DNA of 64,000 nt from Thermodesulfovibrionia bacterium (GCA_020053105.1 JAGVNU010000042.1:15502-79501); one strand, 5' to 3'; positions 1,718 to 25,826 are shown, counted from the stretch's first letter. Numbers and translations are program-made. Notes: generated by a model not told the origin, from the letters alone.

Positions 1718-1967
1718 ATGTTCAACCCTCCTGAGTTGAAATTGACTTTAATCATGCAGCCTGCCCACGATACTAAAATATAGTAACCCCTCTGGTAAAA
1801 CTATGTTTAACTAATGGACAAGTATAATTTGTTCTATCCCATAAACTCATGCAAGCCATGAGTAACTCAGATTACAAAAATTGACTTAACTATTTTTACT
1901 ACAATAAATTCTGTTTGTAAAATAATTAATTATTATAGGACTATTAAACGGGAATTGCGTGCTGATA

Positions 1968-4262
1968 TTATTCGATGAATTTAATCAGTGAAGCAGGGGG
2001 TTCAACTCTTTCATTGGGGTCATGAAAGTATTTATATCTGAAGATCGCGTCAAGGCCGTGGCAGTCTATGCAGATATTATTATAGCTTACATTCCGAAGA
2101 AAGCTGTTTGTTGCATTGCCTTCAAGGTTTTTGTTGACACCTTTTTCTTTAACGAGAGGGCTCCACTGATGAGCATTATGACATGAAGGACAGGAGATGT
2201 TCCCGACGTTTACTTCGGCCCCGGTTATTTTGTCGAATATAGGGGAGAAATCGAGAGACTGTCTGTCACTGCGCAGGACATTATTTATTAATCTTTCTTC
2301 GGGATGAGAAGCGATCGCGGGTATTTTAGTTTTCGCGATTCCATCTGAGGAATGACATCCGTTACATAGAGAGTCTATCAGATCCTCATCGCCGGTTATT
2401 TTTCCGTATGCCCGGCCCCATAGTTTCATATTATTGGGACTGTTATGGACAAGGTGGCATACTCCGCACTGCCCCGATTCCCTGACTGTCTGGCCTAGCA
2501 GGTTTTTCGCTTCCGGACCAGTGATATTCATATCGTGGTCGGTCCCATCAACAAATGCCTTTTCTTTATGACAGGTCTTACACAGGTCGGATGATGGAGA
2601 GTTGGATTTTCTAAGGAAACTGTTTCCGGCGTCCCCTTCAACATTTTCAGATGTATAATTCTGCACAGGATTAATTGGGTCCCACGTGTGAGGGTCATGG
2701 CATGTTAAGCATGCGATTTTCCCGTCGGCTGTTTTATTCCCTTCATTGTCAAACAACGGCAGGGTCGTCGTAATATTGAACTTGTCCAACGTTACTCCCA
2801 CTGCGTGATAGTTGTCTCCGAGAAGTTTGGCCTTTGCCGCTCCGTTGCTGTTGTGGCAACCTGTACAAAGCTGTGAGGCGGTATCTTTATCGCTGGAGAT
2901 TTTTTTTGCCCATAAACGGTTTGATACAGCGTTATGGGGGATATGACATACGCCGCAGGGGCCGGAAACGAGAGGGGTAAAACCCTGCACGTTTTTTTCT
3001 TCGGGTGCGGTTACCGCAAGGTTGTGGTCGGATGTTGCCAATTGTTCTTTGTCAGTATGACACTTAAGACATAGAATGGAAGAGTCATTGGCTAGTCTGA
3101 GAAAACTGTTCGAAGAATCTCCCTCAACATCTTTGCCGCCTTTATTAATGAGCGAGTTCGGGTCCCATCTGTGAATATCATGACAGGTAAAACACTGAAC
3201 ATTTCCTTTTGGATTTTTGGCGCCGTCTTCTGAAAATAAAGGAAGTTCATCAGACAGTTTTACGTCTGAAGCCAGCTTTGCATTAATAGGGTGTGAATAT
3301 TCTCCTATGCGCTTTGTCTTATAATCAGTATTTTCTCCGTGGCATGTAAGACACATCTGTGATGCTGGATTCCCTTCTTTAATCGGTCTTGCCCAAAGCC
3401 TGTTGCCGGCTGCGTTATGCGGTGTGTGACAAGCACTGCAGGGGCCTGAATCAGATAGCTGCTGTTTCTTGATGTTCTTTTCATCCGGGAGGGTTGTACG
3501 CAGATCATGTTTTGTATCGACCAGGGATTTCTGCTTTTCGTGGCAGAGAGAACATAGGTCCGAGTTTCTGTTGTCGACGATCAGAATCTTGTTCCCTTTG
3601 GCCCCATGTACTTTGTGGCAGGACTGACATACTACCTTATTTTTTTCTGATGCGGGTTTTGCGCCTAATTCAAATAGCTTCACAGGCAGTTCGAGTGCTT
3701 TAGTATGCACAGGATGCCCGTTTGAGAACTTAAATGAAGCTTCATTCCGATGGCACTTCTCGCACAGACTGGAATCAATATTAACTTCCCTGAAAACAGA
3801 GGTCCTTCCGGTAGGGTCACCGTGCTGCGCAGCTGCGCCTTTTCCGTGGGCTGAATGGCAGGTGCCACAGTATATTTCGTCTTTCACACTCAGAGGCAGG
3901 TCTATGGGGACCGTTATATTTTTTGAGGGCTTCACAAAAACCGGATGCCGGTTATAGGTCCACGTAATGTGACGTGATTCCATTACATATCCGTCATGAC
4001 AGCTGTAACATATTTCTTCGGAGCTGACAACGCCCTGAGTATCCTTCATCAGGACATTGCCAGATGGAAATTCTACAAGCGTTTCCTGGTCGGTCCTGAA
4101 GTCTTCCATCCACTCGATATGACAGACAACACAGTCTCTTTTAGAAGACATTTCAAGGGCAAACGTGTAATGATTGAAAATAAGAAAAAAGAAGGCAGTG
4201 AGTAAAATATATAATGAGTACTTATTGAATCTGACGTTGGAAATCATTAGCTTTAATTCCAA
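1968..4262 (-). CDS. 18-haem c-type cytochrome built from repeated 4-haem modules
   Basis: 764-aa ORF with an N-terminal hydrophobic signal (YSLYILLTAFFFLIFNHYTFA). I counted 18 CxxCH motifs. A repeating unit recurs (CxxCH-xPHN..NRLW, CxxCH, CxTCHD[IP]H.WDP, NSFLR...CxxCH). Start may be Met1 (4262) or Met6 (4247). Confidence 0.9.
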   Translation of the reverse strand: MELKLMISNVRFNKYSLYILLTAFFFLIFNHYTFALEMSSKRDCVVCHIEWMEDFRTDQETLVEFPSGNVLMKDTQGVVSSEEICYSCHDGYVMESRHITWTYNRHPVFVKPSKNITVPIDLPLSVKDEIYCGTCHSAHGKGAAAQHGDPTGRTSVFREVNIDSSLCEKCHRNEASFKFSNGHPVHTKALELPVKLFELGAKPASEKNKVVCQSCHKVHGAKGNKILIVDNRNSDLCSLCHEKQKSLVDTKHDLRTTLPDEKNIKKQQLSDSGPCSACHTPHNAAGNRLWARPIKEGNPASQMCLTCHGENTDYKTKRIGEYSHPINAKLASDVKLSDELPLFSEDGAKNPKGNVQCFTCHDIHRWDPNSLINKGGKDVEGDSSNSFLRLANDSSILCLKCHTDKEQLATSDHNLAVTAPEEKNVQGFTPLVSGPCGVCHIPHNAVSNRLWAKKISSDKDTASQLCTGCHNSNGAAKAKLLGDNYHAVGVTLDKFNITTTLPLFDNEGNKTADGKIACLTCHDPHTWDPINPVQNYTSENVEGDAGNSFLRKSNSPSSDLCKTCHKEKAFVDGTDHDMNITGPEAKNLLGQTVRESGQCGVCHLVHNSPNNMKLWGRAYGKITGDEDLIDSLCNGCHSSDGIAKTKIPAIASHPEERLINNVLRSDRQSLDFSPIFDKITGAEVNVGNISCPSCHNAHQWSPLVKEKGVNKNLEGNATNSFLRNVSYNNICIDCHGLDAIFRYKYFHDPNERVEPPASLIKFIE

Positions 4263-4387
4263 ATCGCAAGCACTAAATAATAAATAAATGCCAATTCATA
4301 ACGAGGGGGAAATTTGAAATACTGGAAAGTTTTGTAATTGGAATTTATTTGTTAAATGGGACTTGTGTGAATTATTTTTTTTTGTTT

Positions 4388-5305
4388 TCATTCTAATATC
4401 TTCAGTACGCTTATTGCGTTTCCTCTCATTTCCACTACGAGTAGTCTATCATTTTTATCAGCAATAATTCCTACCGGAGACTTAAATTTTTTTATCCTGT
4501 TGTTTTCGCAAATGACCCCGAGGAACCGCCCCAGGTCCGTAAATGCCTGTATCACTCCCATATAACTGTCGCTTATGAACACCCTGTTTTTCTTGCCCAG
4601 GGCCACCCCCTTAGGTCTGAACAGATGTCCCTGCAGTACCCCCCATGAACCAATAGACACGATATGTTTTCCGAACGGATCAAATTTCTGGACCCTGGTA
4701 TTAAGCACATCAACGATAAAGATTTCATTGTATTCATTTAATGTCATAATTCCAGGGTATCTGAATTCCCCGGAGGTCTCTCCGAATCCTCCCCACTCGA
4801 AATCATACGTGCCGTTTTGTTTGTACACCTTAATCTTATGGTTATTATTATCAGATACATAGAGGAAATTATTTAAGTTAGAGGCAGCAACATCGACTGG
4901 TTCAGAAGGCGCCTCCCCGTGGCCGGCCTTAACCGTAAACATGTATAAAAAATTGCCTTCGGAATCAAAAACCTGAATCCTGCTATTCCCGGTATCGGCA
5001 ATAAAAACTTTCCCTGAGTCAGATATATCAATTCCGAGGGGCAGCTTGAACTGTCCCTTTTCAGTCCCCTCGCTGCCAAAAGAGAATTTCCATCCCCCGT
5101 TATCGTTAACTACAATTATCCGGCTGTTAACTCCATCTACGAGGTATATGTTCCCCTTTGAATCCAGGGCGATATCACTTGGCTGATTTGCTCCAGGCTT
5201 GATGTCGAAGAGAAATTTGGTGTTGATGCATTCTATTGCAAATGAACTCGCTGGCAGGAAAAGAACAACAATAATTAATATTAATTGAACAAGAAAAGGT
5301 AGCAA
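4388..5305 (-). CDS. Secreted NHL-repeat beta-propeller protein
   Basis: 305-aa ORF with a signal peptide (LILIIVVLFLPASSFA). Repeated NHL-type blades, e.g. PSDIALDSKGNIYLVDGVNSRIIVV, PLGIDISDSGKVFIADTGNSRIQVF, YPGIMTLNEYNEIFIVDVLNTRVQKF, PKGVALGKKNRVFISDSYMGVIQAF. Confidence 0.85.
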   Translation of the reverse strand: MLPFLVQLILIIVVLFLPASSFAIECINTKFLFDIKPGANQPSDIALDSKGNIYLVDGVNSRIIVVNDNGGWKFSFGSEGTEKGQFKLPLGIDISDSGKVFIADTGNSRIQVFDSEGNFLYMFTVKAGHGEAPSEPVDVAASNLNNFLYVSDNNNHKIKVYKQNGTYDFEWGGFGETSGEFRYPGIMTLNEYNEIFIVDVLNTRVQKFDPFGKHIVSIGSWGVLQGHLFRPKGVALGKKNRVFISDSYMGVIQAFTDLGRFLGVICENNRIKKFKSPVGIIADKNDRLLVVEMRGNAISVLKILE

Positions 5306-5345
5306 GGCGATTATTTTCAGTAATGTTTTTGTTTTATATTAACAT

Positions 5346-5386
5346 TCCCACAGAGATTTCCGAAATGTCAGGAAATCTCTGTGGGA
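5346..5386 (-). other. Perfect 16-bp stem / 9-nt loop hairpin between tri-haem cytochrome gene and NHL gene
   Basis: tcccacagagatttcc (5346-5361), loop gaaatgtca, ggaaatctctgtggga (5371-5386). No U-tract follows on either strand. Confidence 0.6.
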
Positions 5387-5403
5387 GAGAATTGCAAGAA
5401 AGA

Positions 5404-6234
5404 CTATTCTGAAAACAGGTTAGGGATGTAGAACTCTTCATATTTAGTCACCATCCCTTTAATGTTTAACTGCTCAAGGTCTATGATTCTGTTTGCTGAG
5501 AACCCCAAGGTTCTAAAATCAAGAATGCCATTTCTTGAGTGGCAAACTTTGCATTCATGTCCTTTAGCTTTAATATGCACATGGAATTTCTTTTTAACGT
5601 TATCTCTCTGCTCAGGAGTAAGTTTGTCCCTGACCTTTACATAATCCTGAGCCAAATCTGAATCCTGTATCTGAATCGCCGACTTGAATTTATCTCCGCT
5701 TCTGTAAAAGGGAGATATCTTGGAAAACTGGTCTTCAACCTCAACCAGGTTTCCGGACTCAGTATCATATGAAGTACCAAAAAATGGTCCCTTTGGATTT
5801 TCGTTCAAAGGGTTATACCACTTATAAATTACGCTCATTCCTGGTTGTTCTTCGATATGACATGTTTCGCATACGAAAAATTGTGTGTGCATGTTCAACA
5901 TTGCCCGTACTTTCTTATTTTTGCTGTGGGGGTAGTCGGAATGACATATGTAACAGACAGGGCGCATATTTTCAGGGAGTTGGGGATATTCGACAACATG
6001 ATGAAAATGCCTGTGCTTCTCGTATTCCTCCTGCTGCCTCACTTCATCGAGGATCGCTGATTTTTGAGATTCTTCGATCTTCTCCTTTATCGGTACTAAA
6101 ACAGCAGGGCCGTGAGGAGAAAAAGTGATCTGGTATATAACTGCTATCAATACTGAAAGCGTAATAATCTTAAAAATAAACCCGATTACATAAACTGATT
6201 TGGGATGTTCTAATCGCTTTGGTTCGCCTGGCAC
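5404..6234 (-). CDS. Membrane-anchored tri-haem c-type cytochrome
   Basis: 276-aa ORF with one N-terminal TM helix (VYVIGFIFKIITLSVLIAVIY). Motifs CYICH, CETCH, CKVCH. I do not recognise the family more precisely. Confidence 0.7.
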   Translation of the reverse strand: MPGEPKRLEHPKSVYVIGFIFKIITLSVLIAVIYQITFSPHGPAVLVPIKEKIEESQKSAILDEVRQQEEYEKHRHFHHVVEYPQLPENMRPVCYICHSDYPHSKNKKVRAMLNMHTQFFVCETCHIEEQPGMSVIYKWYNPLNENPKGPFFGTSYDTESGNLVEVEDQFSKISPFYRSGDKFKSAIQIQDSDLAQDYVKVRDKLTPEQRDNVKKKFHVHIKAKGHECKVCHSRNGILDFRTLGFSANRIIDLEQLNIKGMVTKYEEFYIPNLFSE

Positions 6235-6250
6235 TTTAAAGTCACCTCCT

Positions 6251-7129
6251 TTAGTTCGTGTCGTAGCCGTTTTCTCTTAAGATTTTTTTCATATATTCTC
6301 TTTCTTCCGGAAACTCTTTCAGATTGTAAACGTATTCCAGGAAGTGCTCTTCTATTTGATGTTCTCTGGTAATTCTTCCAGTCAGAAAAGACCACTGAAG
6401 AGGGAATCTGCCGGGGACCAGGTGTACATTTGACCAGTGCCAAAAGACAATAACTGTAATTGCCATGATCGCTTCATCGGCGTGCATCAACCTGGCCAGG
6501 TCCTGACCGAATCTGGGGTTAGGCCAGATAGTTGCCATTGTCTCGGGAAACAATAATGACGTTCCCGCTGATACCAGCACAAAGGTCCCCCATAAAATCG
6601 CAACGTAGTGAAGTTTCTGCTTGTACATGAATTTATACATCTTGGGACGTTGCTCCTCTTTCCCCAAGAAATATTTAATATCGTGGACCATATCATGAGC
6701 ATCCTTTATAAGGGGAATCTGTGTCCTGTTAATATTAAATTTTTTTGTCATGATTTTGTGGAGGGTCCCGCCGATAATTGTTATAAGGTGGTATACGCTT
6801 GCAATAACCATTAATGCTGCTGCTATTCTATGGATAAGTCGTGCCGTGTCCGGTCCGCCAAAAAGCTTCATCACGAGAGGCGCCCACCATAGGCTGGCGA
6901 AGTGTAAAGTCAGCCCAGTGGCTGCAAGGATGAGGAATGTTATAAATGTTAAAAAATGCTGGATAACTATATGATATGAGTAACGCGGGAGGTCTCCCAG
7001 CGGATCTGATTTTACATATTTATATATGTCTCTCGGGATATTTCCCACGCCTTCAACGTATGTATAGTATTCATCAGCCCCCGCCTCTTTGGAAGAAGCC
7101 GCGATATTTTCACTAGATGTTGACATCAT
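6251..7129 (-). CDS. Di-haem b-type cytochrome membrane subunit (FdnI/PhsC/CbcB-like)
   Basis: 292-aa ORF with multiple TM helices carrying conserved His (HIVIQHF, HRIAAALMV..YH, HADEAIMAITVIVFWHWSNVH). Lies immediately downstream of the multihaem gene 7174..8256. Paralogue of the partial gene at 1..655. Confidence 0.8.
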   Translation of the reverse strand: MMSTSSENIAASSKEAGADEYYTYVEGVGNIPRDIYKYVKSDPLGDLPRYSYHIVIQHFLTFITFLILAATGLTLHFASLWWAPLVMKLFGGPDTARLIHRIAAALMVIASVYHLITIIGGTLHKIMTKKFNINRTQIPLIKDAHDMVHDIKYFLGKEEQRPKMYKFMYKQKLHYVAILWGTFVLVSAGTSLLFPETMATIWPNPRFGQDLARLMHADEAIMAITVIVFWHWSNVHLVPGRFPLQWSFLTGRITREHQIEEHFLEYVYNLKEFPEEREYMKKILRENGYDTN

Positions 7130-7173
7130 CCCTCCTTATATATAGAGATATTCCTGTATTTCGTCTCATGATA

Positions 7174-8256
7174 TTATTTGGATTTCTTCCGCTTCGATTC
7201 TCCGCGCCAGGATGTTCCACGTACGATCTGCATGCTAATCCCGTCTTTTCTTCTGCCGTAGGATTCGAGCATTGCAAGGCCTATCAAGCTGAAAACTGAT
7301 CCATAAAATACAAATCCCAAAATAACATTCACAGAATATAAAAACGGTTTTTCATGCGGCCCGATTTCTGAATGCACATCAATTTGAGCAAACCTTTCAG
7401 TTACGTTTTCATGACACTGTTTGCACGTTTTTACAAGGTTTGCTTTATTCACTGTGGCGTGCGGTTCATCTTTCTTGTAAATGTCATGTATTGAGCTTGT
7501 GGCATGACAACTCACACAGTCGGCAGCTGTTTGCGATCCCAAGCCTATAGCTTTGCCATGGATTGACTCATTATAAGTTTTTACCGCCTCCATGCTTTCC
7601 CTGGAGACCTTCAGCTTTTTCATTAGCACAAGATCAGCATGGCAATTCTTGGCGCACAACTGGACAATTTCCTGAGGCGAGCGTGAGGTCTTGGACCGCA
7701 GGCGATGGGTTATATGTTTATAAGCTTGCGTAACGCCTTTTCTTTCATGACAATTCAAACAACGGCTTAAGGTCTCTTCAAAGGCGATCCTTTGTTCATC
7801 GACCCGTGTATAAATAGGATTAAGATGACAATATTTGCAATATGGTTTTGCCGCCTTTAATTCTGCAGAGTCATCGTCTTTGGAGCCGTGAACGCTCCTG
7901 TTATATACATCTATAATTTTCTTATGAGAAAAATTTTCATTCGAGAAGGGGGGCTTGATGTGACACTCGTTGGCACAATTGACTTCTTGTGTTACAGGAT
8001 CATGAGGAAGTTTATCTATATATGTGTGGCAGTCTCTGCAGGGGACGTTTCTGTGGACAGCATTAGCGTAAATATTTTCACTGACAAAATAACTCCTCTT
8101 ACGTCCCTTCTCATCAATCCGCCCGATCTGGCGATACTTATGACACATAAGGCAATTCTCTTTGTCTGCTGCATCAACACCGGGAGCCATAAAAGAGAAC
8201 AAAAGGAATATCGCAAGGAATAAAGTTTTACTAGTTAAAATTTTTATAAATTCCAA
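7174..8256 (-). CDS. Membrane-anchored multihaem c-type cytochrome (6 CxxCH + 2 CX3CH), Cbc-type
   Basis: 360-aa ORF with a signal peptide (LFLAIFLLFSFMAPGVDA). Motifs: CLMCH, CRDCH, CKYCH, CLNCH, CVSCH, CKQCH plus CANECH and CAKNCH. C-terminal TM helix (VILGFVFYGSVFSLIGLAML). Confidence 0.85.
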   Translation of the reverse strand: MEFIKILTSKTLFLAIFLLFSFMAPGVDAADKENCLMCHKYRQIGRIDEKGRKRSYFVSENIYANAVHRNVPCRDCHTYIDKLPHDPVTQEVNCANECHIKPPFSNENFSHKKIIDVYNRSVHGSKDDDSAELKAAKPYCKYCHLNPIYTRVDEQRIAFEETLSRCLNCHERKGVTQAYKHITHRLRSKTSRSPQEIVQLCAKNCHADLVLMKKLKVSRESMEAVKTYNESIHGKAIGLGSQTAADCVSCHATSSIHDIYKKDEPHATVNKANLVKTCKQCHENVTERFAQIDVHSEIGPHEKPFLYSVNVILGFVFYGSVFSLIGLAMLESYGRRKDGISMQIVRGTSWRGESKRKKSK

Positions 8257-8576
8257 ATCCCTCTCCTCCTATTCATGCAAAGATATTTATTGGTTTTGAG
8301 GTCTATCGGGGCCACATATCATGCCAGCGGAGATCTACCCCTGAATAGCAACTGTTAATAATAACATATGGAATACATATGTTTGCTTAAATTATATTAA
8401 TAAAATTATAAGTCATTCTTTTGAGAGTTTACAAAAGTGAGTATTATTAACATTTGAAATATCTTTTGTCAAGAATCGTGGCTTCTCATTTTATGATGTT
8501 GAAATTTGCAACCAGAATGATTTTCAATAAAGTGGAAATAAAGTAGGTGGCCTGGCGTGTATGTTATATTTAAGTA

Positions 8577-10097
8577 ATGTTTAATAGTCTGAAGTTTAAA
8601 ATAAGTATTACTGCCTTCCTTATTATATCAGTCATAATGACTTTATCCACATGGCGGGACATTAAAGAAACTGAACGGAAGCTTCTTGAAGGTCAGAAGG
8701 AAAAAGTAGTATTGCTTTCCGAAAGGATATCACACAGCATAATGGTGCTTATGTTGAAGAACAGGTGGCAGGATTTACAAGCTTTTTTAGAAAGTATGAC
8801 CAATGATTCCCGTGAGCTGAGGTCCATTAGAATATCTGAGCCGGATAAAGGAGTTATAGTAGCATCTTCAACCAGGCAGGATATAGGCGGACATATTAAT
8901 AGACGGGATAGAGATATGTTTAATAAGAAGGCAATAAATGATGCTTATCTGACGGAAAAAAATGCTCAGGGTTTTGCTTCGAAACTCACTGTTATCCAGA
9001 ATCAGACGATCTGTCACCGGTGCCACGGTTCTGAAAAAGAGATATTAGGGGTGATGGGAGTGGATATTTCCCTGGATGAAGTATATAAGTCCATAAATCA
9101 ATTTCAAAAAGAACGGTTATTGGATGCCGCGATGGGATTCTTGATGATCGGTGGAGGATTTATGCTCGTTATAGGGTTGTTAATAGACAGACCTATAAAG
9201 AAAATGATCCGGATTATACGTAGAATTGAAGGCGGGGACTTGTCTGCCAGGATGGAGGAAGATAAGAAAGATGAGTTCGGTCTTATGGCAAAAAGTTTTA
9301 ATAGTATGCTTGAATCGCTTGATGCGGCTAAACAGGAAATAGAAATGTGCCATTCAGAACAAATGCAGAGGGCGGCAAAACTGGCATCTCTTGGAGAGAT
9401 TATCTCCGGAATTGCTCATGAAATAAAAAATCCACTTACTGGAATAAGTTGTGCTGTGCAGGTTTTTCAGTCGGAAATGAGTGAAGATGATAGCAGGAAA
9501 GCTGTCACCACTGAAATATTGAATCACATAAAAAGACTTGACCGGACAGTTAAGGATTTGCTGAATTATGCTAAACCCAAGCCCCCTAATTTCTTGGCTC
9601 TTAATATTAATGATGCATTGAATAAGGCTGTTTTTTTCGTTTATCCTGAGGCCAAAAAACAGAATGTATCTATAGATACCATTGTTGAAGGAGAAATCCC
9701 GGATATTATGATGGATCCCGACCAGATGCAGCAGGTCTTCTTAAATTTAATGATAAACGCAGTGCAGGCCATGCCGGATGGAGGAAAGCTTAAGATAACA
9801 ACGTTAAAATCCGACATAGATAAGGAAGAGCATATTGAAATTATTAAATTACTGCACGGAGAAAAGGCGGTTATCGTTAGATTTGAAGATACGGGCAAAG
9901 GGATAGAAGGCGAATATCTGAATAGTATATTTGATCCATTCTTTACAAAAAAATCAAAAGGAACAGGGCTTGGTTTAGCAATAAGCAGGAGAATTATACA
10001 TGAGCATGGTGGCGAGATTGATGTGGAAAGTAAAGTCGGAAAAGGGAGTGTATTCTCTATATACTTGCCGTTAATGCAAAAAAGAGAAGGCGTGTAA
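8577..10097 (+). CDS. Sensor histidine kinase with a periplasmic CxxCH (c-haem) sensor domain, HAMP, HisKA and HATPase domains
   Basis: 506-aa ORF. TM1 (ISITAFLIISVIMTL), then a roughly 150-aa periplasmic segment containing QTICHRCHGSEKEILGVMGVDISL, which resembles the Tll0287/DUF3365-type haem-c sensor as I recall it. TM2, HAMP, H-box SGIAHEIKNPLTGI, G-boxes GTGLGLAISRRI. Confidence 0.85.
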   Translation: MFNSLKFKISITAFLIISVIMTLSTWRDIKETERKLLEGQKEKVVLLSERISHSIMVLMLKNRWQDLQAFLESMTNDSRELRSIRISEPDKGVIVASSTRQDIGGHINRRDRDMFNKKAINDAYLTEKNAQGFASKLTVIQNQTICHRCHGSEKEILGVMGVDISLDEVYKSINQFQKERLLDAAMGFLMIGGGFMLVIGLLIDRPIKKMIRIIRRIEGGDLSARMEEDKKDEFGLMAKSFNSMLESLDAAKQEIEMCHSEQMQRAAKLASLGEIISGIAHEIKNPLTGISCAVQVFQSEMSEDDSRKAVTTEILNHIKRLDRTVKDLLNYAKPKPPNFLALNINDALNKAVFFVYPEAKKQNVSIDTIVEGEIPDIMMDPDQMQQVFLNLMINAVQAMPDGGKLKITTLKSDIDKEEHIEIIKLLHGEKAVIVRFEDTGKGIEGEYLNSIFDPFFTKKSKGTGLGLAISRRIIHEHGGEIDVESKVGKGSVFSIYLPLMQKREGV

Positions 10098-10138
10098 GAA
10101 GTTATTAACTCATTATAAATCAACCGGCACAGTGAAGA

Positions 10139-11554
10139 TTGTGCAGAATATTAATTGTTCCGTTATGTTATGGAGGGTTATTGGCTCAAAGCAAGATACT
10201 TGTCATTGATGATGAGGAATTTATAACCAGGAGTCTTAAGCAGCATCTGGAAAAAGAGGAATATGAGGTAGCTACCGCTGCTACCGGGGAAGAGGGAATT
10301 GAGATGTTCAAGGCTGAACCCCCCGATATTATTATCCTAGATCTAAATATGCCCGGGATGGGTGGTATTGAGACACTGAAGACCATCAGAAACCTGAGCA
10401 GTGATGTTGTTGTAATTATAATAACTGCCCATGGTGACATAGAAACCGCAGTTTCGGCTATAAAATTAGGGGCTTATGACTTTGTGGAGAAACCTTTTGA
10501 ACTGGACAGAATTTCTGTTCTCATCAGGAAGGCTTCTGAAACGGTACATCTAAAAAGAGAAGTTACTTTCCTCAGAGAGGAAAAATTCGACACTTACAGC
10601 TTCAATAATATTATAGGGAATTCTCAAATAATGAAGGATGTTATCAATCTTGCAAAAAAAGTAGCTGCAAGTGATGCTAATACGATTCTCATTCAGGGTG
10701 AGAGCGGGACCGGCAAAAGTCTGCTCGCAAGGGCAATTCATTATCATAGTGCGAGGGCCTCGGGACCATTTGTCGAAATAACCTGTACGGCGATACCTGA
10801 GGCGCTGATAGAGAGTGAGCTTTTCGGCCATGAAAGAGGTTCATTTACAGATGCTAAAGTATCCAAAAAAGGGCTATTTGAGGTTGCCAGCGGAGGAACT
10901 ATATATCTGGATGAAATAGGAGATATTAAATTGTCAACACAGGCCAAGCTATTGAGGGCCCTTGAAGAAAAGACATTTAAAAGGGTTGGCGGACTTAAAG
11001 ATATTAAAGTTAATGTACGGATTGTCGCAACAACGAACAAAAAAAACCTGGAAGGGGCAGTAAGAGAGGGGTCTTTCAGGGCAGACCTTTATTACAGGCT
11101 AAAGGTATTTCCGATCTTCCTTTCACCCTTGAGAGAACGAAGGGAAGATATTATCCCTCTCGCAATGCATCACATTAATAGATTCAATAAGGAATTCAAA
11201 AAAAATGTTAAGATGATCTCTCCTGACTCCGAAAAGCTGTTGTTGAATTACCCCTGGTTTGGTAATGCCCGGGAACTTAGGAACATTGTTGAGAGAATAT
11301 GCATTCTGGAAGATACCGATATAATTTATCCCAGACATCTTCCCTCTGAAATAGTTGAGTATGTTAATTCGGAAGCGGAGGAAGGCGGTTCAATAGATTT
11401 TCCCAGCGAGGGCCTTTCTCTGAGAAATGTGGAAAAGGATCTTATTGTCCAGGCCCTCAAGAAGGCCGACAATAACCAGACAAAGGCTGCCAAGTTGCTC
11501 AGTATTTCACGAGATGCATTGAGATATAAGATGCAGAAGTTCAATTTGCTTTGA
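10139..11554 (+). CDS. Sigma54-dependent response regulator (REC + AAA+ + Fis-type HTH; NtrC family)
   Basis: 471-aa ORF. REC domain (ILVIDDEE...DLNMPGMGG), Walker A GESGTGKS, ESELFGHERGSFTDA (GAFTGA-region), RADLYYRL, C-terminal HTH NQTKAAKLLSISRDALRYKMQKF. Start is uncertain (TTG at 10139; no good SD). Confidence 0.9.
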   Translation: MCRILIVPLCYGGLLAQSKILVIDDEEFITRSLKQHLEKEEYEVATAATGEEGIEMFKAEPPDIIILDLNMPGMGGIETLKTIRNLSSDVVVIIITAHGDIETAVSAIKLGAYDFVEKPFELDRISVLIRKASETVHLKREVTFLREEKFDTYSFNNIIGNSQIMKDVINLAKKVAASDANTILIQGESGTGKSLLARAIHYHSARASGPFVEITCTAIPEALIESELFGHERGSFTDAKVSKKGLFEVASGGTIYLDEIGDIKLSTQAKLLRALEEKTFKRVGGLKDIKVNVRIVATTNKKNLEGAVREGSFRADLYYRLKVFPIFLSPLRERREDIIPLAMHHINRFNKEFKKNVKMISPDSEKLLLNYPWFGNARELRNIVERICILEDTDIIYPRHLPSEIVEYVNSEAEEGGSIDFPSEGLSLRNVEKDLIVQALKKADNNQTKAAKLLSISRDALRYKMQKFNLL

Positions 11555-11859
11555 AATATGTTAACAGGCAATAAACCCAACGGGAGGAACATATATTGTT
11601 TTTCATTATTAACTTATAAGGCTGTCCCCTTTTATAATGAAAGTAGATATAATAGAAAAATTATCTTGCCTGATACGCTGAAATGGTTATGAGTCATTAT
11701 TCACAACTGTGTCAAATAACACGCTTAGAAGTGATGATGACTAAGCTGGCTAAGAGTCAGTTTGCAATCATCTAATAATGATTAATCCCTTTATGTTATA
11801 TCATACTAAGAGCATGAATAATGACAGGAAGAAGATTAATTGCCTATAGAACTCAAGAC

Positions 11860-11875
11860 TGGCATATGAATTGCT
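11860..11875 (+). promoter_or_regulatory. Sigma54 -24/-12 promoter (TGGCAT-N5-TTGCT) upstream of first OmcS-like gene
   Basis: tggcatatgaattgct. GG at 11861-62 and GC at 11873-74 give the canonical 12-nt offset. About 115 nt upstream of the ATG at 11990, next to a sigma54 activator gene. Confidence 0.75.
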
Positions 11876-11989
11876 TATGTTAAGGTAGTATAAATGACTT
11901 TATGATTGCTTAATTCTTAAGCTAAAATAAAAAAGGAGGTGGCTAAAACAAAAATGAAGACAAACCAAAAAACAAAGGAGGTAATTAAA

Positions 11990-12985
11990 ATGAGAAAAAT
12001 AATTATGGCAGTATTGCTGGCGTTTCTTTCAGTCACGCTGGTAAGTGTGTCTGCTTATGCAGCCATTAGTGGCACATGTAGTGACTGCCACACAATGCAC
12101 AACAGCCAGGACGGGGCTGCGGTTGACAGTAGTGGTACGAATGATAATCTTACAAAATTCGATTGTATCGGTTGTCATAGCGGAAATATTGCTGCTGCAC
12201 CCAATGTGACCGGCGAAGGAGCGACTATGACAGCGGGAGGTACATTTAAGAGCAGCATAGTCGGAAGCACTTCCAGCCGGACACATAATGTTCGTGACAT
12301 ATCTTGGACTGTTGATGAAGTAGCTCTTCTTAACACGACACCGGGTTCGGTGGCTGGAGGTTTTACAGAGCCTGCCGGCGCTACTGAATTGACCTGTGCA
12401 GGAACAACTGGCTGCCACGGGCAGGCCACAGGCGGATTTTCGGGCTTTCATCACAATGCTTATCCGAATGCATACCGGTTTCTCAGAATCAATGACGGCG
12501 CTAGCTACACGGATGTAAATGGAGTGGGTTCAGCCGACTGGGAGGTAGGCGGAGCTACAACAACAAATCACAACATATATGACGGTGATGGAACCAACAG
12601 CATAAGCACATTTTGCGCAATGTGTCATGGTGGTTTCCATGGAGGCAGCAATACCGCCAGTTCAAGTCCCTTTCAGAGACACCCGACTGACGAAGAAGCT
12701 TTAATTGATAACGTTGACGGAGCAGGAATCACAATAACATCTGCTACAATTAACGAGACTCCATTCGGTTTCACGAGCGCTCAAATTGCCTTAGGGATGG
12801 TGACTACCGATGTTACTACGGGATCAGCCTACACTGCTCCTAATGGATTAGTTACCTGCCTGTCTTGCCACAGGGCACATGGTTCAGCACAGAGTGACCT
12901 TCTGAGGTTCGACTATAGTACTATGAATGCCGGCAACAGTGTAGACAACGGAGGTTGTGAGACCTGTCATACAGCTCAAAGGTAG
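11990..12985 (+). CDS. OmcS-family multihaem (5 CxxCH + CX5CH) cytochrome, paralogue 1
   Basis: ORF track 11939..12985. I prefer the ATG at 11990 (AAGGAGG 9 nt upstream). Signal peptide ...SVSAYA, then [18 protein letters not shown]. Further motifs: [49 protein letters not shown]-terminal CETCHTAQR. These blocks match, in the same order, the G. sulfurreducens OmcS sequence as I remember it (CEGCHTMHNS ... LRHP ... NCLSCHRAHASG ... CNKCHAKD). Confidence 0.8.
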   Translation: MRKIIMAVLLAFLSVTLVSVSAYAAISGTCSDCHTMHNSQDGAAVDSSGTNDNLTKFDCIGCHSGNIAAAPNVTGEGATMTAGGTFKSSIVGSTSSRTHNVRDISWTVDEVALLNTTPGSVAGGFTEPAGATELTCAGTTGCHGQATGGFSGFHHNAYPNAYRFLRINDGASYTDVNGVGSADWEVGGATTTNHNIYDGDGTNSISTFCAMCHGGFHGGSNTASSSPFQRHPTDEEALIDNVDGAGITITSATINETPFGFTSAQIALGMVTTDVTTGSAYTAPNGLVTCLSCHRAHGSAQSDLLRFDYSTMNAGNSVDNGGCETCHTAQR

Positions 12986-12996
12986 AGATGAAGGGT

Positions 12997-13030
12997 AAAA
13001 AGGAGCCGGTATCTTGCCGGCTCCTTTTTT
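12997..13030 (+). terminator. Rho-independent terminator after OmcS-like gene 1
   Basis: Stem ggagccgg (13002-09) / ccggctcc (13017-24), 7-nt loop, A-run before and tttttt (13025-30) after. Confidence 0.8.
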
Positions 13031-13100
13031 AAGGTTCATCAAAAAATGTAATATGATGGGGAATTAAGAAGGTTCTGAAAATCAATTCTTGGAAATTACT

Positions 13101-14141: not shown

Positions 14142-14251
14142 GTCGCTGATTGTTATGAGATCTTTGTATATGCCCGGATGATGCAAAAAGGTCAGATTAA
14201 TCAAGGAATAGCTAAAAGAGCGATTATTTGTTAGATATAGAGGAGCAAACA

Positions 14252-15370
14252 ATGGAAGACAAATATTTCAACGATAAAAGGATCCTGATATTTTGTAGTG
14301 CAGTAATAATGTCACTATTTCTGACAGGCATCCCTTTTTCACTTTTTGCCGCAATTACCGGGGAATGCGCCAACTGCCACACTATGCACAACAGTCAGGA
14401 TGCATCGGTCATGGCAGATTACGGGGCATCCGGCAAGCCATGGAAAGGCAGTGGTCCAAATGATGCGCTGACTCGTGGTGATTGTCTCGGATGTCACGGC
14501 ATTGGTACTTCCAAAGTTGTAACCTTAGGCACAAGTGAGATACCTCAGGTTTATCATACTGATGCAACCGGTGATCTGGCAGGCGGCAACTTTGCTTATA
14601 TACTTGGTACAAAGGGTAGTGGCGCATCTGATGCTAAGGGACATAATATAGTAGAAATTGGTGATGCTGAAAGTACATTATCAGAGCCTCCGGGGCACCA
14701 TTCACCCAGCAGCATAAGAGTTAATATCACCTGTTCAGGAATAACCGGCTGTCATGGTAAACGAGCTTCAGGGGAAATCTTGAAAGGGGTCCATCATAAA
14801 AATGTTGATGGTGCGCTTGATACCTCTGACCAGGTTTATAACAGTTACAGATTTCTTTACGGGGTCAAGGGCTTTGAAAATACGACAGGTTCTTATAAAT
14901 GGCAGAACTTTGATAAAGATAATCATAATGAGTATTTTGGTGCAACTACCCCCATGAGTTACACCGGTTGTAATATCTGCCATACTCCGCAGGGGATCCA
15001 GCCTACTAATCATACAATAAGCGGTTTCTGTGGAACATGTCATCGAGAATTTCACACGGTTGAGGGTATTGGCGGCGACACCAGTACTCCGTTCCAGAGA
15101 CATCCAACGGATGTGATCTTGCCTGGCAGCGGTGAGTACGCAAGTTACAATGGGGTCGGCAATCAATATAGTGTACAGGCCCCGGTAGCCAGAACAGCGA
15201 ATCCTATTATTTCCATTAGCGATACGGTCATTCCTGGAACAGATGTAGTCATGTGTCTCTCCTGCCATATGGCACACGCGTCCAATTATCCTGACATGCT
15301 GAGGTGGGATTACAGTGCGATAGAATTAGGTGGTTCAGGAGGTTGCCTTATATGCCACACATCAAAATAA
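14252..15370 (+). CDS. OmcS-family multihaem (6 CxxCH + CX5CH) cytochrome, paralogue 3
   Basis: ORF track 14228..15370; ATG at 14252 follows GAGGAG. Signal ...SLFA, then [17 protein letters not shown]. Further motifs: [91 protein letters not shown]. Confidence 0.8.
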
Positions 15371-15425: not shown

Positions 15426-15700
15426 TTCAGTATATGGCCAGCGATATTTTCTGTAGTTTGTTAACGCAATGATCTCTCCATGATTGTGATATTTCCTGAA
15501 ATATATTAATAAAACTATAAGTACATTGAATTACATAACAACTTATTGCTATTATTTAAAACTTGATCTGATAGTTCGTTGTAAAATCACAATATTTTTT
15601 GCGACGCTTAACATAAGAATAAAGCAGGGGAAATCAGTCGCCACCTTAATGATTTGGTGCTTATTTGCAAAGCGCAGCTGAATCGCATTTTGTACCCATA

Positions 15701-16672
15701 ATGGAAAAAAAAACCAATCAAGCGAGAATCCTGTTACAGAGGACAACTTATTTTCTTTCTTCTGTTCTAGTTGTGCTGTCGTTGGTCCCTTCAGCTCTGG
15801 AGTCCCAGCAGCTTGGTTCTGCCATTATTACCTATCAGGAGAGCATCACTACTGATGAAGAGGACAGAAATCTGGTATTGCCCTCGTTTATTTATGCAGA
15901 TTTATTAACAGGTGAAGTTTATGTTATAGATGGTAAGGGCAGAATTATTATATTTTCACCCGAGCTGTTTCCGTTAATTACACTCGGCAAAAGGGACGGA
16001 GTTGAAGCGCCTCAGGGGTTGACTGTGGATGCTGAAGGTAATCTTTATATTGCCCAGGCCGCATCAAAAAGCAATCCGAAAAACAGGATTTCGGTTTACA
16101 ATGCATGCCTGAAGTGGGAAAGGGATATATATTTGGAGGATTTTGAGGGGAGCGGTTCATTTGCCCCTTATCGCCTTGCAATAGACAAGAAGGGGAATCT
16201 GTATGTGGCGGCAAGCCATTTCCCCGGTGTCGTGTATGTAGATACAACGGGTCGTTTTATTGATATTATTGCACCTGAGGAGGATGGGAAAAAAATAAAA
16301 TTAAATAGTGTCGTTATTGACAAGGCAGGGAAAATATATGTTGTAAGTGAGGATCAGAGTCATATTTATGTTTATGATGAAAATAGAAAATTTATTAATA
16401 AATTCGGTGAAAAAGGCGGAAGCACGGGTAAACTCAGCCGTCCCAAGGCCATTGGGGTGGATGACCGAACAGGCAGAAGCTTTGTCGTGGATTATATGCG
16501 CCACACGGTAACTTCATATGATAAGGAAGGTAAGTACCTTTTTGAATTTGGTGGGCTCGGGTGGAGCGAAGGATGGTTCCAGCACCCGGTCAATTTAGCG
16601 ATTGACAATAAAGGCAGGATCTTTGTGGCAGATTTATTTAATCAGCGGGTACAGGTGTTTAATTCCTGGTAA
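15701..16672 (+). CDS. Secreted NHL-repeat beta-propeller protein
   Basis: ORF track 15665..16672; ATG at 15701 preferred. Hydrophobic signal (YFLSSVLVVLSLVPSALE). NHL-type blades, e.g. PQGLTVDAEGNLYIAQ, PYRLAIDKKGNLYVA, PKAIGVDDRTGRSFVVDYMRHTVTSYD, PVNLAIDNKGRIFVADLFNQRVQVF. Confidence 0.85.
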   Translation: MEKKTNQARILLQRTTYFLSSVLVVLSLVPSALESQQLGSAIITYQESITTDEEDRNLVLPSFIYADLLTGEVYVIDGKGRIIIFSPELFPLITLGKRDGVEAPQGLTVDAEGNLYIAQAASKSNPKNRISVYNACLKWERDIYLEDFEGSGSFAPYRLAIDKKGNLYVAASHFPGVVYVDTTGRFIDIIAPEEDGKKIKLNSVVIDKAGKIYVVSEDQSHIYVYDENRKFINKFGEKGGSTGKLSRPKAIGVDDRTGRSFVVDYMRHTVTSYDKEGKYLFEFGGLGWSEGWFQHPVNLAIDNKGRIFVADLFNQRVQVFNSW

Positions 16673-16853
16673 CTTATAATTAGAGTTTTTTTTATAAAGA
16701 CGCCAAGCTGGATTCGTATATAATTTCCGCGAAGGCGGCAATCAGGAATTCTGGGTCTAATATGATACTCCGGCTTTCTGCCGTAACGCGTACCGGGTCA
16801 ATACGGTGACTAAAATTAGGCAAAAACTTTATTTAATATAGGGCAGTAGAAAC

Positions 16854-18431
16854 ATGAAAAATACTAAATATATCTTAAGACTCCGGCTTTTCATGATATT
16901 TTTTGCAACTGTCATTTTTCCCCCGGGTTGTATGACTCCGGAAGAGCAGGCAAGTCACCCTGAGATGTTTAAGTGTCAGGTGTCCCTTTTTTTTAACGGC
17001 CCTGACATGGCTGCCAGTGATATCACCTTTGAGCTGGCGGGAGTCAATATAGTAGCAGAAGATGGGACTTCCAGAGAAGTTGTGCGCGCTCCTCTCCGTA
17101 TTAATTCCAATGATATAAAAGGCCGTCAAATATTTCTGGGTGAAAAATCTTTACCTGAAGGCAAGTACGAAAAGCTTCAGTTTGTCATAAAGGAAGCGTC
17201 TATCAGTAAAAAAGGGAAGACCTCACATCTAGCGTTGCCGCCCGGGGGAGTGGAGTTAGGCATTGATGTTTCCTTAAGAAGAAATCAGAGTACCACATTA
17301 TTTCTGAACTGGAATGCTGATGCATCTGTCAGTGAGGACTACCTATTCAACCCTGTATTTACGGTAAAGAGTCAGGGCGCTGAATTAAGTTCTCTGCTTA
17401 TTTACGTAACTAATGAGGATTCGGACTCCGTCTCGGTGATTAACAGGCAGGCCGGTGAGATAGCCGCGACAGTATTGGTGGGGAAAAAGCCGAGGGGGAT
17501 TGCGACTTCAATTACGGGAGAGCGCCTTAAGGTTTATGTTGTGAATTCAGGCTCAAACAGTATCTCAGTAATCGACCCTACAACGAATAAAATAGAGAAT
17601 GAGATCCCTATCAGGTTCGGCAGGCAGCCGGAAGCTATCGCTGTAGCAGGCATATCCGCTGATAAGGAGCTGATATTTGTCGCCAATTACGGCTCCAATT
17701 CAGTTTCCCTGGTGGACGCATCCACTTATCAGGAGCTGGAGAAGATAGATGTAGGGCGAGGCCCAATAGCAATTGCAACAGACCCACCGGTGGAGGATCT
17801 TATGGGATCGAGGTTTCTCAGCTTTGATGATATTAACTTATTAAGAAGTTACAGGGAAAGGTTTTTTAATGTTTATGTAGTCAATCAAAATTCCAACAGC
17901 GTTTCCGTGTTGAGGATTGACGCTGTGGCTAAGAAGAGCGTGGAAGTTATTAATCTAAGCGTGGAATGGAGACCCGTCGCGCTAAGCGTGGATTATCAAA
18001 GGGGCAAGGTTTATATAGCCAATTATGATTCTGACAAACTGTCTGTTATAGATATCCCCAAAACAGTAAAGGGCATTACGTCAGATGCTGTCAGCACCAT
18101 TAATAATGTGGGATTTTCTATAATAGGTGTCATCGCTGACCCGGCCTTCGACAGGCTGTATTTATTAAAAGAACGTACCGGGGAGGTAGTGATTGTCAGA
18201 CCTTTTACAGACAACCTTGATACCCTCAGGACAGTGATGCCTCCGGTAATGGGGACTATTGCCGTGGGGAGTTCGCCAAGAGCACTCGTTTTAGATCCTG
18301 AAGCCAGAAAGCTGTATGTAGTTAACAGCGGATCAGACAATATTTCAGTTATAGATAAAACCACAATAAATGAAGAGCAGATCATCCCTGTAGGCAAGAA
18401 GCCTTACGGTATAACATTTTTCCAGAAATGA
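16854..18431 (+). CDS. Lipoprotein with N-terminal DUF4382-like domain and YVTN-type beta-propeller
   Basis: 525-aa ORF with a lipobox-like FPPGC. The N-terminal roughly 170 aa resemble the DUF4382 pattern (LPEGKYEKLQFVI...LALPPGGVELGIDV...LFLNWNADASV). Then repeated YVTN-like blades (IYVTNEDSDSVSVINRQAGEI, VYVVNSGSNSISVIDPTTNKI, IFVANYGSNSVSLVDASTYQ, VYVVNQNSNSVSVL, VYIANYDSDKLSVID, LYVVNSGSDNISVIDKTT). Confidence 0.8.
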   Translation: MKNTKYILRLRLFMIFFATVIFPPGCMTPEEQASHPEMFKCQVSLFFNGPDMAASDITFELAGVNIVAEDGTSREVVRAPLRINSNDIKGRQIFLGEKSLPEGKYEKLQFVIKEASISKKGKTSHLALPPGGVELGIDVSLRRNQSTTLFLNWNADASVSEDYLFNPVFTVKSQGAELSSLLIYVTNEDSDSVSVINRQAGEIAATVLVGKKPRGIATSITGERLKVYVVNSGSNSISVIDPTTNKIENEIPIRFGRQPEAIAVAGISADKELIFVANYGSNSVSLVDASTYQELEKIDVGRGPIAIATDPPVEDLMGSRFLSFDDINLLRSYRERFFNVYVVNQNSNSVSVLRIDAVAKKSVEVINLSVEWRPVALSVDYQRGKVYIANYDSDKLSVIDIPKTVKGITSDAVSTINNVGFSIIGVIADPAFDRLYLLKERTGEVVIVRPFTDNLDTLRTVMPPVMGTIAVGSSPRALVLDPEARKLYVVNSGSDNISVIDKTTINEEQIIPVGKKPYGITFFQK

Positions 18432-18449
18432 TAAATTGCAGAAGATATA

Positions 18450-18465
18450 TGGAATCAGAATTGCG
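18450..18465 (+). promoter_or_regulatory. Candidate sigma54 -24/-12 element (TGGAAT-N5-TTGCG) upstream of the OM barrel gene
   Basis: tggaatcagaattgcg. GG 18451-52 and GC 18463-64 have the correct 12-nt offset, but the -24 hexamer deviates from TGGCAC at two positions. Confidence 0.35.
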
Positions 18466-18540
18466 GACTTCACATTTCATGCCCCGGATTATTATTGCTT
18501 GCATATCTGAAATGTTAAATCCGGGACAAAAAGATGACCT

Positions 18541-20829: not shown

Positions 20830-20872
20830 AGTTGTAACATATAATACTGCCTGTTTAATAGAATAAACTTGA

Positions 20873-21487
20873 ATGGGAATGAACATGATTGACAGGGTGA
20901 CCAAGGGAAAATGCGGCCGGTTTCAGATATATGTATTAACGGTCCTTTGTTTTTTTATATTTTTTACAGGCGGGTGCAGCACCACCTCGAAGAAATATAC
21001 CCGCCCTGACTTCGACATAAACTCGATTAACACCATTGCGGTGCTTCCCCTTGAGAACTTCACTTCAGACAATTACGCGGACGAAAAGATCAGAAGTAAA
21101 ATAAGCATTGAACTCTTATCACGGGACCTTAACATTATTGAGCCCGGCGAAATCATTTCGGTCTTAAGGGAACTGAAGATTAAATCCGTTGATTCCATTC
21201 GAAATAAGGACATGGTGAGCATAGGAAGCATGTTAAATGTTGAGGCTGTTCTCACCGGGTCGGTGGAAGCATTCGGGATAAGCAGAGGAATTGCGGCGTC
21301 ATATCCCGAGGTGTCTGTCCATCTGATGATGTTTGACACGGTCACAGGGAATATTGTCTGGTCGGCCTGGCATACAAGCGGCGGCGCAAGTTTCTGGACG
21401 AGGCATTTCGGCGCAGAAGGCAGCACCCTCGATAACGTATCTGAAAGGGTAATTAAAGAGGCATTTGATGCTCTATATAGTCGTTAA
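20873..21487 (+). CDS. Lipoprotein with a CsgG/LpoB/TolB-N-like alpha/beta domain (family shared with next two genes)
   Basis: 204-aa ORF with lipobox FFTGGC. Domain starts NTIAVLPLENFTSDNYADEKIR. C-terminal block HTSGGASFWTRHFGAEGSTLDNVSERVIKEAFDALY is paralogous to the 21573..22160 product. Confidence 0.7.
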   Translation: MGMNMIDRVTKGKCGRFQIYVLTVLCFFIFFTGGCSTTSKKYTRPDFDINSINTIAVLPLENFTSDNYADEKIRSKISIELLSRDLNIIEPGEIISVLRELKIKSVDSIRNKDMVSIGSMLNVEAVLTGSVEAFGISRGIAASYPEVSVHLMMFDTVTGNIVWSAWHTSGGASFWTRHFGAEGSTLDNVSERVIKEAFDALYSR

Positions 21488-21572
21488 CTGCCGGTCATGG
21501 GGAAAATTAATTATAAGGCCTGCCGGCGGAGAATTACATAACTGGAAATTGATACTTGATGAATAAAGGAGA

Positions 21573-22160: not shown

Positions 22161-22284
22161 TTGGTCATTGCCTTATGATCAGCTGTTAACATCCACTGAC
22201 ATTTAACCTGTGTCGGTCTAAAGACTAAACGATTACCATGGCCAACATACAAATATCAAAGGTTTCTGTCCTGGGATTTATATA

Positions 22285-24126: not shown

Positions 24127-24154
24127 TTATAGCCTTGCTATTGGATCGTAAATT

Positions 24155-25816: not shown

Positions 25817-25826
25817 TAATCTTCTG

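Follow-up and report, generated by a model that had tools for sequence, protein, structure and literature searches.

A 64,000-nucleotide stretch of DNA from an uncultured Nitrospirota lineage (Thermodesulfovibrionia bacterium, GCA_020053105.1, JAGVNU010000042.1:15502-79501) encodes a sensor histidine kinase with a predicted haem-c site, an NtrC-type activator of sigma-54 RNA polymerase next to it and, further along the same strand, several cytochromes that resemble OmcS of Geobacter sulfurreducens. Having searched this whole 64-kb stretch, hereafter the window, we think it probable that kinase and activator form a two-component system dedicated to the first of the OmcS-like extracellular cytochrome genes (OmcS-like gene 1), acting through an upstream activating sequence (UAS) and a sigma-54 promoter. 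A first-pass annotation of the same DNA had described a self-contained circuit in which a periplasmic redox or ligand signal switches on filament production. The outline of that circuit is real, with sensor, activator, promoter and candidate UAS all in place. Its reach was overstated: only one copy of the UAS occurs in 64 kb and a strong terminator follows the gene, so the regulon that can be demonstrated is one monocistronic gene and not filament production overall.

In the circuit we propose, the kinase would display a single-Cache domain in the periplasm with one c-type haem attached to C146 and C149, His150 serving as the proximal ligand and Met59 as an exchangeable distal ligand, as in GSU0935 and GSU0582. 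The haem would change state either through reduction and oxidation, with Met going on or off, or through displacement of Met by NO or CO; both the nature of this signal and its sign are predictions. From the haem, the signal would travel through the second transmembrane helix (TM2) and HAMP to the kinase core, which would set how far the co-transcribed NtrC-type activator (10181-11554) is phosphorylated. In its phosphorylated form, the activator would then occupy the tandem repeat at 11690-11723, oligomerise and, by DNA looping, remodel sigma-54 RNA polymerase poised at 11860-11875, from which transcription is predicted to start. OmcS-like gene 1 would be transcribed as a largely monocistronic mRNA ending at the terminator at 12997-13033.

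A predicted haem-c sensor domain of the single-Cache type

The kinase carries the Pfam domains HAMP (amino acids [aa] 205-249), HisKA (272-334) and HATPase_c (380-499), and hydrophobic segments read from the sequence at aa ~9-26 and ~184-206 flank a loop of ~157 aa. The CHRCH motif that the first-pass annotation had seen in this periplasmic loop lies at aa 146-150 (nt 9012-9026). A word-indexed search with the sensor found only nine close relatives, all in Nitrospirota-type metagenome-assembled genomes (MAGs) and all with CXXCH. An exhaustive HMMER search with kinase aa 1-200 yielded 180 cluster representatives, and CXXCH stands at the corresponding place in every homologue long enough to cover it (146 of 146). 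Across 31 aligned sensor domains sharing 19-56% identity, the sole invariant columns are Met59, Asn142, Cys146, Cys149 and His150.

The relationship to known haem-c sensors emerged from profiles of distant homologues. Searched as a single sequence against the PDB, the sensor loop returned chance matches only and recovered neither 3B42 nor 3B47; a first profile (A1) was swamped by HAMP matches, and a sensor-only profile of distant homologues was needed. That profile, built from the 31-sequence alignment, matched 3B42 (GSU0935, E 4.7e-15) and 3B47 (GSU0582, E 6.9e-11) over the full length and placed CHRCH opposite the CQSCH motif of both structures. The motif His aligns with chain residue 110 of 3B42 and the invariant Met with chain residue 26; as the proximal ligand is His144, the offset is 34, so that chain residue 26 is Met60. 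In GSU0935 and GSU0582, His143/144 is the proximal and Met60 the distal ligand (PMC8396549).

Structure prediction gave a single-Cache fold. The AlphaFold2 model of the sensor has a predicted local distance difference test score (pLDDT) of 95.5, and its best Foldseek matches are single-Cache domains: WalK (TM-score 0.66-0.70), GSU0935 (3B42) and CitA. In the model and alignments, CXXCH sits in the helix before the last beta-strands, a distal Met is present, and the single-Cache (PAS-like) fold lies between two transmembrane (TM) helices. These are the features of a family that a 2026 preprint names sCache_heme, in which CXXCH is >99% conserved and outputs include histidine kinases (PMC12889525). 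The Pfam families PF21563 (Mcp40H-20_sensor) and PF11845 (Tll0287-like) score on more distant homologues of the sensor, the window protein itself falling below Pfam thresholds. The earlier identification of a haem-c sensor is thus borne out by the profile match, the invariant CXXCH and the distal Met, and haem binding by the kinase is strongly inferred because of its homology to haem-c sensor domains.

It is very improbable, in our judgment, that CXXCH is no haem site here and serves, for example, to bind a metal or form a disulfide in a Cache domain of the ordinary ligand-binding kind. Such a reading could draw on the first Pfam scan, which gave just a weak dCache_1 match for the window sensor. 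It has to contend with a profile match that spans the whole of two crystal structures with covalent haem c, in which Cys, Cys, His and Met all align, with the invariance of the motif in all covering homologues, and with the loop's location in the periplasm, the compartment of cytochrome c maturation; the window also includes a CcsA-like gene (36043-36870).

What the haem would report is less clear. Tentatively, the kinase may directly sense how reduced or oxidised the cytochrome pool in the periplasm or outside the cell is, itself reduced or oxidised by the regulated chain, and so feed back on synthesis of the major OmcS-like filament subunit. It is also possible, with about the same reserve, that within the same architecture the haem senses a gas ligand (NO or CO, possibly sulfide) and that the OmcS-like gene answers nitrosative or gas cues. 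Two sets of spectra speak for gas sensing: GSU0582 and GSU0935 take up NO whether oxidised or reduced, and CO in the reduced form, with Met60 displaced (PMC8396549), and two Pseudomonas sCache_heme members bind NO with sensor-like spectra (PMC12889525). Speaking against it, the invariant distal Met is the residue that drives a redox-linked spin switch, the haem of GSU0935 and GSU0582 being high-spin (His/water) when oxidised and low-spin (His/Met) when reduced (PMC8396549). An extracellular electron-transfer cytochrome beside a quinol-oxidase-like Cbc operon also fits redox control, as in the BccR/cbcBA system discussed below.

The kinase gene lacks a Shine-Dalgarno sequence (8555-8579). A TATGTTATA box ~10 nt before the ATG is conserved in 9 loci, and because of this box a leaderless or very short-leader kinase mRNA is suggested.

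Activator, candidate enhancer and promoter of OmcS-like gene 1

Scanning a genome collection with a profile of the sensor alignment gave 23 related loci, nearly all labelled Nitrospirota or Thermodesulfovibrionia. Kinase orthologues share 51-86% identity across 23 Nitrospirota loci, and the sensor of a distant orthologue, in locus L022, is 37% identical. Gene order is preserved, with a Cbc-like operon on one strand and, on the other, the kinase, the enhancer-binding protein (EBP), one or more OmcS-like genes and genes for an NHL protein, a propeller and a barrel. Kinase, EBP and OmcS-like gene are syntenic in at least 12 Thermodesulfovibrionia loci.

The activator next to the kinase is complete, and Pfam found all of the REC, AAA+ and helix-turn-helix (HTH) domains that the first-pass annotation had ascribed to it: in the open reading frame (ORF) 10139-11554, Response_reg scores E 5.8e-34, Sigma54_activat E 6.6e-66 and HTH_8 E 3.4e-15, together with AAA_lid_14. 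Its true start is probably the TTG at 10181, which follows a GGAGGG ribosome-binding site. Orthologues conserve the REC Asp (ILDLNMPG), the Walker A motif GESGTGK, the sigma-54-contact loop and the HTH, which is near-identical.

Three promoter-like strings had been proposed for this region, and all three exist where they were placed (TGGCATATGAATTGCT at 11860-11875, AGGCATTATTATTGCA at 29190-29205 and TGGAATCAGAATTGCG at 18450-18465). The string at 11860 is the sole exact consensus match in the window (TGGCAC-N5-TTGCW type, GG and GC 10 nt apart); the candidate start codons of OmcS-like gene 1 follow 64-115 nt downstream. By itself an exact -24/-12 match is unremarkable, 19 of 100 shuffles yielding at least one. 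This element owes its significance to conservation across 11 orthologous loci and to its pairing with a unique, conserved upstream repeat, which vindicates the sigma-54 promoter claimed for this gene. Of 20 loci, 12 have TGGCAY-N5-TTGCW downstream of the activator gene; the match in L014, with neither a UAS nor a haem protein downstream, was excluded, leaving 11. Ten of the genes that follow these promoters are OmcS-like, and the eleventh, in L022, encodes a four-haem cytochrome with the same Lys-rich leader. When the intergenic regions are aligned, three conserved blocks stand out amid diverged DNA: an AT-rich block, the repeat element and the -24/-12 element.

A search for inverted repeats upstream of 11860 had been recommended, and one was found at 11690-11723. 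Its consensus across loci is TGAG-N8-CACA, 2 bp, TGTG-N8-CACA; it is conserved in 12 loci, starting 136-290 bp past the activator stop codon, and stands 123-189 bp upstream of the -24 TGG in 10 loci, at about 150 bp in the window. A position weight matrix (PWM) built without the window copy scored the window site at 23.7 against a shuffle maximum of 14.2, with no other match in the 64 kb, and the explicit tandem pattern matched once in the window where 0.02 matches were expected. Out of sample, high-scoring copies appeared at the expected place in L002 and L012, whose contigs end before the promoter. L022 has a UAS-like repeat at -212 and a sigma-54 promoter preceding its different multihaem cytochrome. 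The arrangement is the classic enhancer layout of an EBP, and the repeat is likely to be the enhancer of the 11860 promoter. Linkage points to the neighbouring activator as the protein that would bind it.

The inferred target belongs to a family that aligns well with OmcS: a profile made from 26 OmcS-like sequences, drawn from the window and from related loci, matched OmcS (6EF8) at E 5e-24 over residues 8-348. The product of OmcS-like gene 1 has six haem motifs. CxxCHTMH is invariant in the 26 sequences, and its second His aligns with OmcS His16, which we take to be the inter-subunit ligand of haem 5. In OmcS, one ligand of haem 5 is supplied by the neighbouring subunit (PMC6584659). Filament formation by OmcS-like protein 1 is plausible. 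The third haem motif of the family is CX5CH (CAGTTGCH, for example at aa ~150 of gene 1), with G..GCH invariant in all 26 sequences. OmcS-like genes here (window 11931-11992) and in L003, L004, L005, L020, L021 and L022 have two GGAGG Shine-Dalgarno-like boxes and two in-frame starts, which encode a conserved Lys-rich N-terminal extension (MKTNQKTKEVIK-MRK...) before the signal peptide, either a long n-region or a leader.

Directly after the gene, folding recovered a hairpin (dG -31.1 kcal/mol, z -6.9) followed by T6. A terminator scan had missed it, the T-tract having probably been taken up into A/T pairs. L004, L011 and L020 have equivalent terminators behind their first OmcS-like gene. With this terminator in place, the sigma-54 promoter mainly drives one gene.

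Several observations weigh against a dedicated circuit. The kinase-EBP pairs of L009, L010, L014, L023 and L024 precede unrelated genes, with promoter and UAS undetected nearby, so the linkage to a cytochrome gene is frequent and non-obligatory. The sigma-54-contact loop reads GSFTDA in the window and G(A/S)FTDA in orthologues, as against the canonical GAFTGA; Phe and Thr are retained and position 5 is Asp instead of Gly, and we infer that such variants are functional. No consensus for integration host factor (IHF) lies between enhancer and promoter, no copy of the enhancer occurs within 320 bp of the element at 29190, and rpoN is not among the window genes, the genome not having been searched for it. 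The five unlinked pairs could also mean that adjacency is incidental, with another EBP using 11690-11875 and the present two-component system governing distant genes. Bacteria of this kind usually encode many EBPs. We consider this unlikely: in 12 loci the repeat begins within 290 bp of the activator stop codon, the repeat co-varies little and the HTH is near-identical among the orthologues that share it, and the pairing persists in the distant L022. The features of the locus are listed with their coordinates in Table 1.

Table 1. Features of the kinase-activator-cytochrome locus, in window coordinates
Feature	Position	Strand	Remarks
Cbc-like operon	659-8256	-	cyt360, cytochrome-b-like protein of 292 aa, cyt276, NHL305, cyt764, cyt352; context, no demonstrated target
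Sigma-70-type promoter of Cbc-like operon	8443-8472	-	TTGACA-18-AATAAT; 11/12 consensus positions
Sensor histidine kinase	8577-10097	+	506 aa; TM1, periplasmic sCache haem-c domain (aa 27-183; haem predicted), TM2, HAMP, HisKA, HATPase_c
Periplasmic sensor domain	8655-9125	+	single-Cache fold with predicted haem-c site; profile, AlphaFold2 and Foldseek
Met59	8751-8753	+	candidate distal axial haem ligand; invariant in alignment; matches Met60 of GSU0935
CHRCH (C146, C149, H150)	9012-9026	+	aa 146-150; predicted covalent haem-c attachment motif, proximal His
NtrC-type response regulator / sigma-54 EBP	10181-11554	+	REC, AAA+, HTH_8; longest ORF from 10139
AT-rich block A	11590-11656	+	directly after activator stop codon; conserved in 8 loci
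Candidate enhancer (UAS)	11690-11723	+	34 bp; two adjacent 16-bp inverted repeats: TGAG-N8-CACA, AC, TGTG-N8-CACG
Sigma-54 promoter (-24 GG / -12 GC)	11860-11875	+	TGGCATATGAATTGCT, TGGCAT-N5-TTGCT; conserved in 11 orthologous loci
OmcS-like hexahaem cytochrome gene 1	11939-12985	+	inferred target; possible starts GTG 11939, ATG 11954, ATG 11990
Intrinsic terminator	12997-13033	+	directly after OmcS-like gene 1; hairpin, then T6
Downstream gene block	15665-29127		NHL protein, beta-propeller, 762-aa protein, GNA1162-like lipoprotein, two hitless proteins, SurA-like peptidyl-prolyl isomerase, two cytochromes
Promoter-like string, unsupported	18450-18465	+	TGGAATCAGAATTGCG, TGGAAT-N5-TTGCG; upstream of barrel gene
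Probable second sigma-54-type promoter	29190-29205	+	AGGCATTATTATTGCA, AGGCAT-N5-TTGCA; upstream of OmcS-like gene 4 (29253-30344); without UAS

The Cbc-like operon, other promoter candidates and neighbouring genes

Divergent from the kinase gene lies an operon whose proteins match Ni_hydr_CYTB/DUF4405, multihaem c families and NHL in Pfam; its b-type membrane cytochrome, multihaem c cytochromes and NHL protein justify calling it "Cbc-like". In G. sulfurreducens, BccR (GSU0598) activates the sigma-54-dependent cbcBA operon upon falling redox potential, and the first-pass annotation was right that cbcBA depends on sigma-54 and an EBP (bioRxiv 10.1101/2021.04.15.440034). The present activator could be BccR-like, with the Cbc-like operon (659-8256) as its main target and the OmcS-like promoter served otherwise: the divergent arrangement mirrors bccR/cbcBA of Geobacter, and the operon is syntenic with the kinase-EBP pair in at least eight loci. 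We judge this improbable. The sigma-54 control expected under such a reading left no trace in the 320-bp divergent region (8257-8576), where neither strand has a GG-N10-GC element in a promoter-like context or a copy of the UAS. What the region does contain is a sigma-70-type promoter, TTGACA-17/18-TAATAAT, conserved in 9 loci, with TGTCAA and TAA.A invariant there. Because a -24/-12 element is absent and this promoter is present, the Cbc-like operon is not a direct sigma-54 target.

The promoter proposed for OmcS-like gene 4 (29190) survives in part. It deviates at -26 (A), and the window holds about as many one-mismatch matches of this kind as chance predicts (7 found, 5.1 expected). The two nearest orthologous contigs, L025 and L026, carry TGGCATTATTGTTGCT and GGGCATAATTATTGCA at the same position, -62/-63 from the start codon, and in the spacer ahead of this gene GGCAT-N6-TTGC is the sole island, besides the ribosome-binding site, conserved among the window, L025 and L026. 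This footprint makes 29190 probably a real sigma-54 promoter. It does not have the enhancer of gene 1, and another activator may therefore be involved there. Additional sigma-54 promoters precede paralogous OmcS-like genes at L008 16229, L021 15502 and L018 16899, the one in L021 with a UAS-like repeat. The OmcS-3-like promoter CTGGCATGRTGATTGCAT is intact in L008 (16229) and L021 (15502), and the window has a degenerate remnant of it, CCCGGATGATGCAAAAAGG, at 14160-14200.

Other strings were rejected as promoters. The weaker element at 18450, which had been assigned to the barrel gene, has a PWM score of 7.9, below the shuffle range and thus background, and no equivalent conserved element exists in L004 or L011. 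AGGCAT-N5-TTGCT at 13136 sits within the signal-peptide coding part of OmcS-like gene 2. The second-best match of the orthologue-derived matrix (18.1), GATCTGGAACATGATTTGGGTCTT at 37266-37289 on the minus strand, has no -12 GC; it falls in an unannotated 197-aa ORF region.

Block A, between the activator gene and the UAS, holds a sigma-70-like TTAACT-18-TATAAT at 11609-11638, and in L005 its sequence (ATATCCCCTTTTTCATGAAAAACGGGATAT) is almost a palindrome. A second (basal) promoter and the operator of another regulator are both possible roles. A Fur box was considered as its identity and discarded, with no match there at up to 3 mismatches. The window's sole Fur-box-like match, GATAAAGATAATCATAATG at 14912-14930 (3 mismatches, 0.02 expected), is within OmcS-like gene 3.

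Downstream of the activator gene, three OmcS-like genes, gene 1 included, are followed by the block at 15665-29127, the fourth OmcS-like gene and another cytochrome. The two cytochromes within the block are very haem-rich, with 7-12 or more paired CXXCH units, and its 762-aa protein, the "barrel" of the first-pass annotation, had no match in the Pfam scan. The block is syntenic in L004, L008 and L011 and presumably resembles the genes that follow omcS in Geobacter; it may serve as a module for export or assembly. Further along are a multihaem cytochrome (32110-33006) and a SurA-N-like chaperone (33059-33730). Haem supply genes (33778-36870, minus strand) for porphobilinogen deaminase, glutamyl-tRNA reductase and a CcsA-type cytochrome c assembly protein adjoin the cytochrome island. 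In a single MAG (L013, 1207-5150), a haem-c kinase orthologue truncated by the contig stands back-to-back with a second, unrelated kinase-EBP pair.

Relation to known systems and significance

Every component of the locus is of a known kind: a haem-c Cache sensor, an NtrC-class activator, sigma-54 control of cytochromes and a kinase and activator beside omcS. In NtrB/NtrC at glnAp2 and in ZraS/ZraR, a phosphorylated activator with REC, AAA+ and a Fis-type HTH acts from paired inverted repeats 100-200 bp upstream of a GG-N10-GC promoter. The window shares the REC-AAA+-HTH activator and the paired repeats ahead of such a promoter, and differs in input domain, in enhancer sequence (TGNG-N8-CACA, twice), in target and in its GSFTDA loop, where those systems have GAFTGA. 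The sensor, like those of GSU0935 and GSU0582 (PDB 3B42 and 3B47; PF21563), combines a CXXCH site for c-type haem with a single-Cache/PAS-like fold, two TM helices and a following HAMP domain, at an identity of merely ~17-19%. Its output is a HisKA/HATPase kinase that would feed a transcription factor, whereas theirs is the signalling domain of a methyl-accepting chemotaxis protein (MCP). The OmcS-like proteins have the six haem motifs of OmcS (6EF8) and align over most of it, yet they are ~60-75 aa shorter, and their third haem motif is CX5CH where OmcS has CSSCH.

Two Geobacter systems come closer to the arrangement as a whole. With BccR/cbcBA the window has in common a REC-AAA+-HTH activator and a respiratory cytochrome gene with a -24/-12 promoter, divergent from a bc-type cytochrome operon. 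Here, however, it is the OmcS-like gene that lies downstream of the sigma-54 promoter and enhancer, and the Cbc-like operon has a sigma-70-type promoter; unlike BccR, the activator also has a cognate haem-c kinase encoded in the same operon. The neighbouring operon, being wired differently, thereby corrects a tempting analogy. In G. sulfurreducens, the sensor kinase GSU2507 and the sigma-54 response regulator GSU2506 lie directly upstream of GSU2505-omcS (PMC10599522, PMC11077965), the same order of kinase, sigma-54 activator and omcS-type gene as in the window. The likeness is one of gene order and annotation: GSU2507 is annotated as a Cache_1 sensor of 621 aa and GSU2506 as having a PAS domain, with no haem-c input. 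We found no paper showing control of omcS by GSU2507/GSU2506, and none on a haem-c kinase regulating an OmcS-type gene, on an enhancer for one or on this Nitrospirota locus. The proposed wiring from haem-c kinase through sigma-54 activator to an OmcS-type gene is previously undescribed in the literature we found.

Little is understood of what turns on cytochrome "nanowire" genes; even in Geobacter, the kinase and sigma-54 activator beside omcS have neither a defined signal nor a defined DNA site. In the window, all candidate parts of the circuit have coordinates, from sensor and activator to a 34-bp enhancer, a -24/-12 promoter, a single target gene and its terminator, and the cofactor and ligands of the sensor can be predicted from solved homologues. 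For an uncultured Nitrospirota lineage, the question thereby becomes testable in heterologous hosts, and the locus offers a compact redox- or gas-responsive expression module. If the kinase does read the redox poise of the cytochrome pool, the locus would provide the first defined set of sensor, enhancer and promoter for any cytochrome-nanowire gene, and the system would act as a redox homeostat devoted to extracellular electron transfer and conserved across uncultured Thermodesulfovibrionia.

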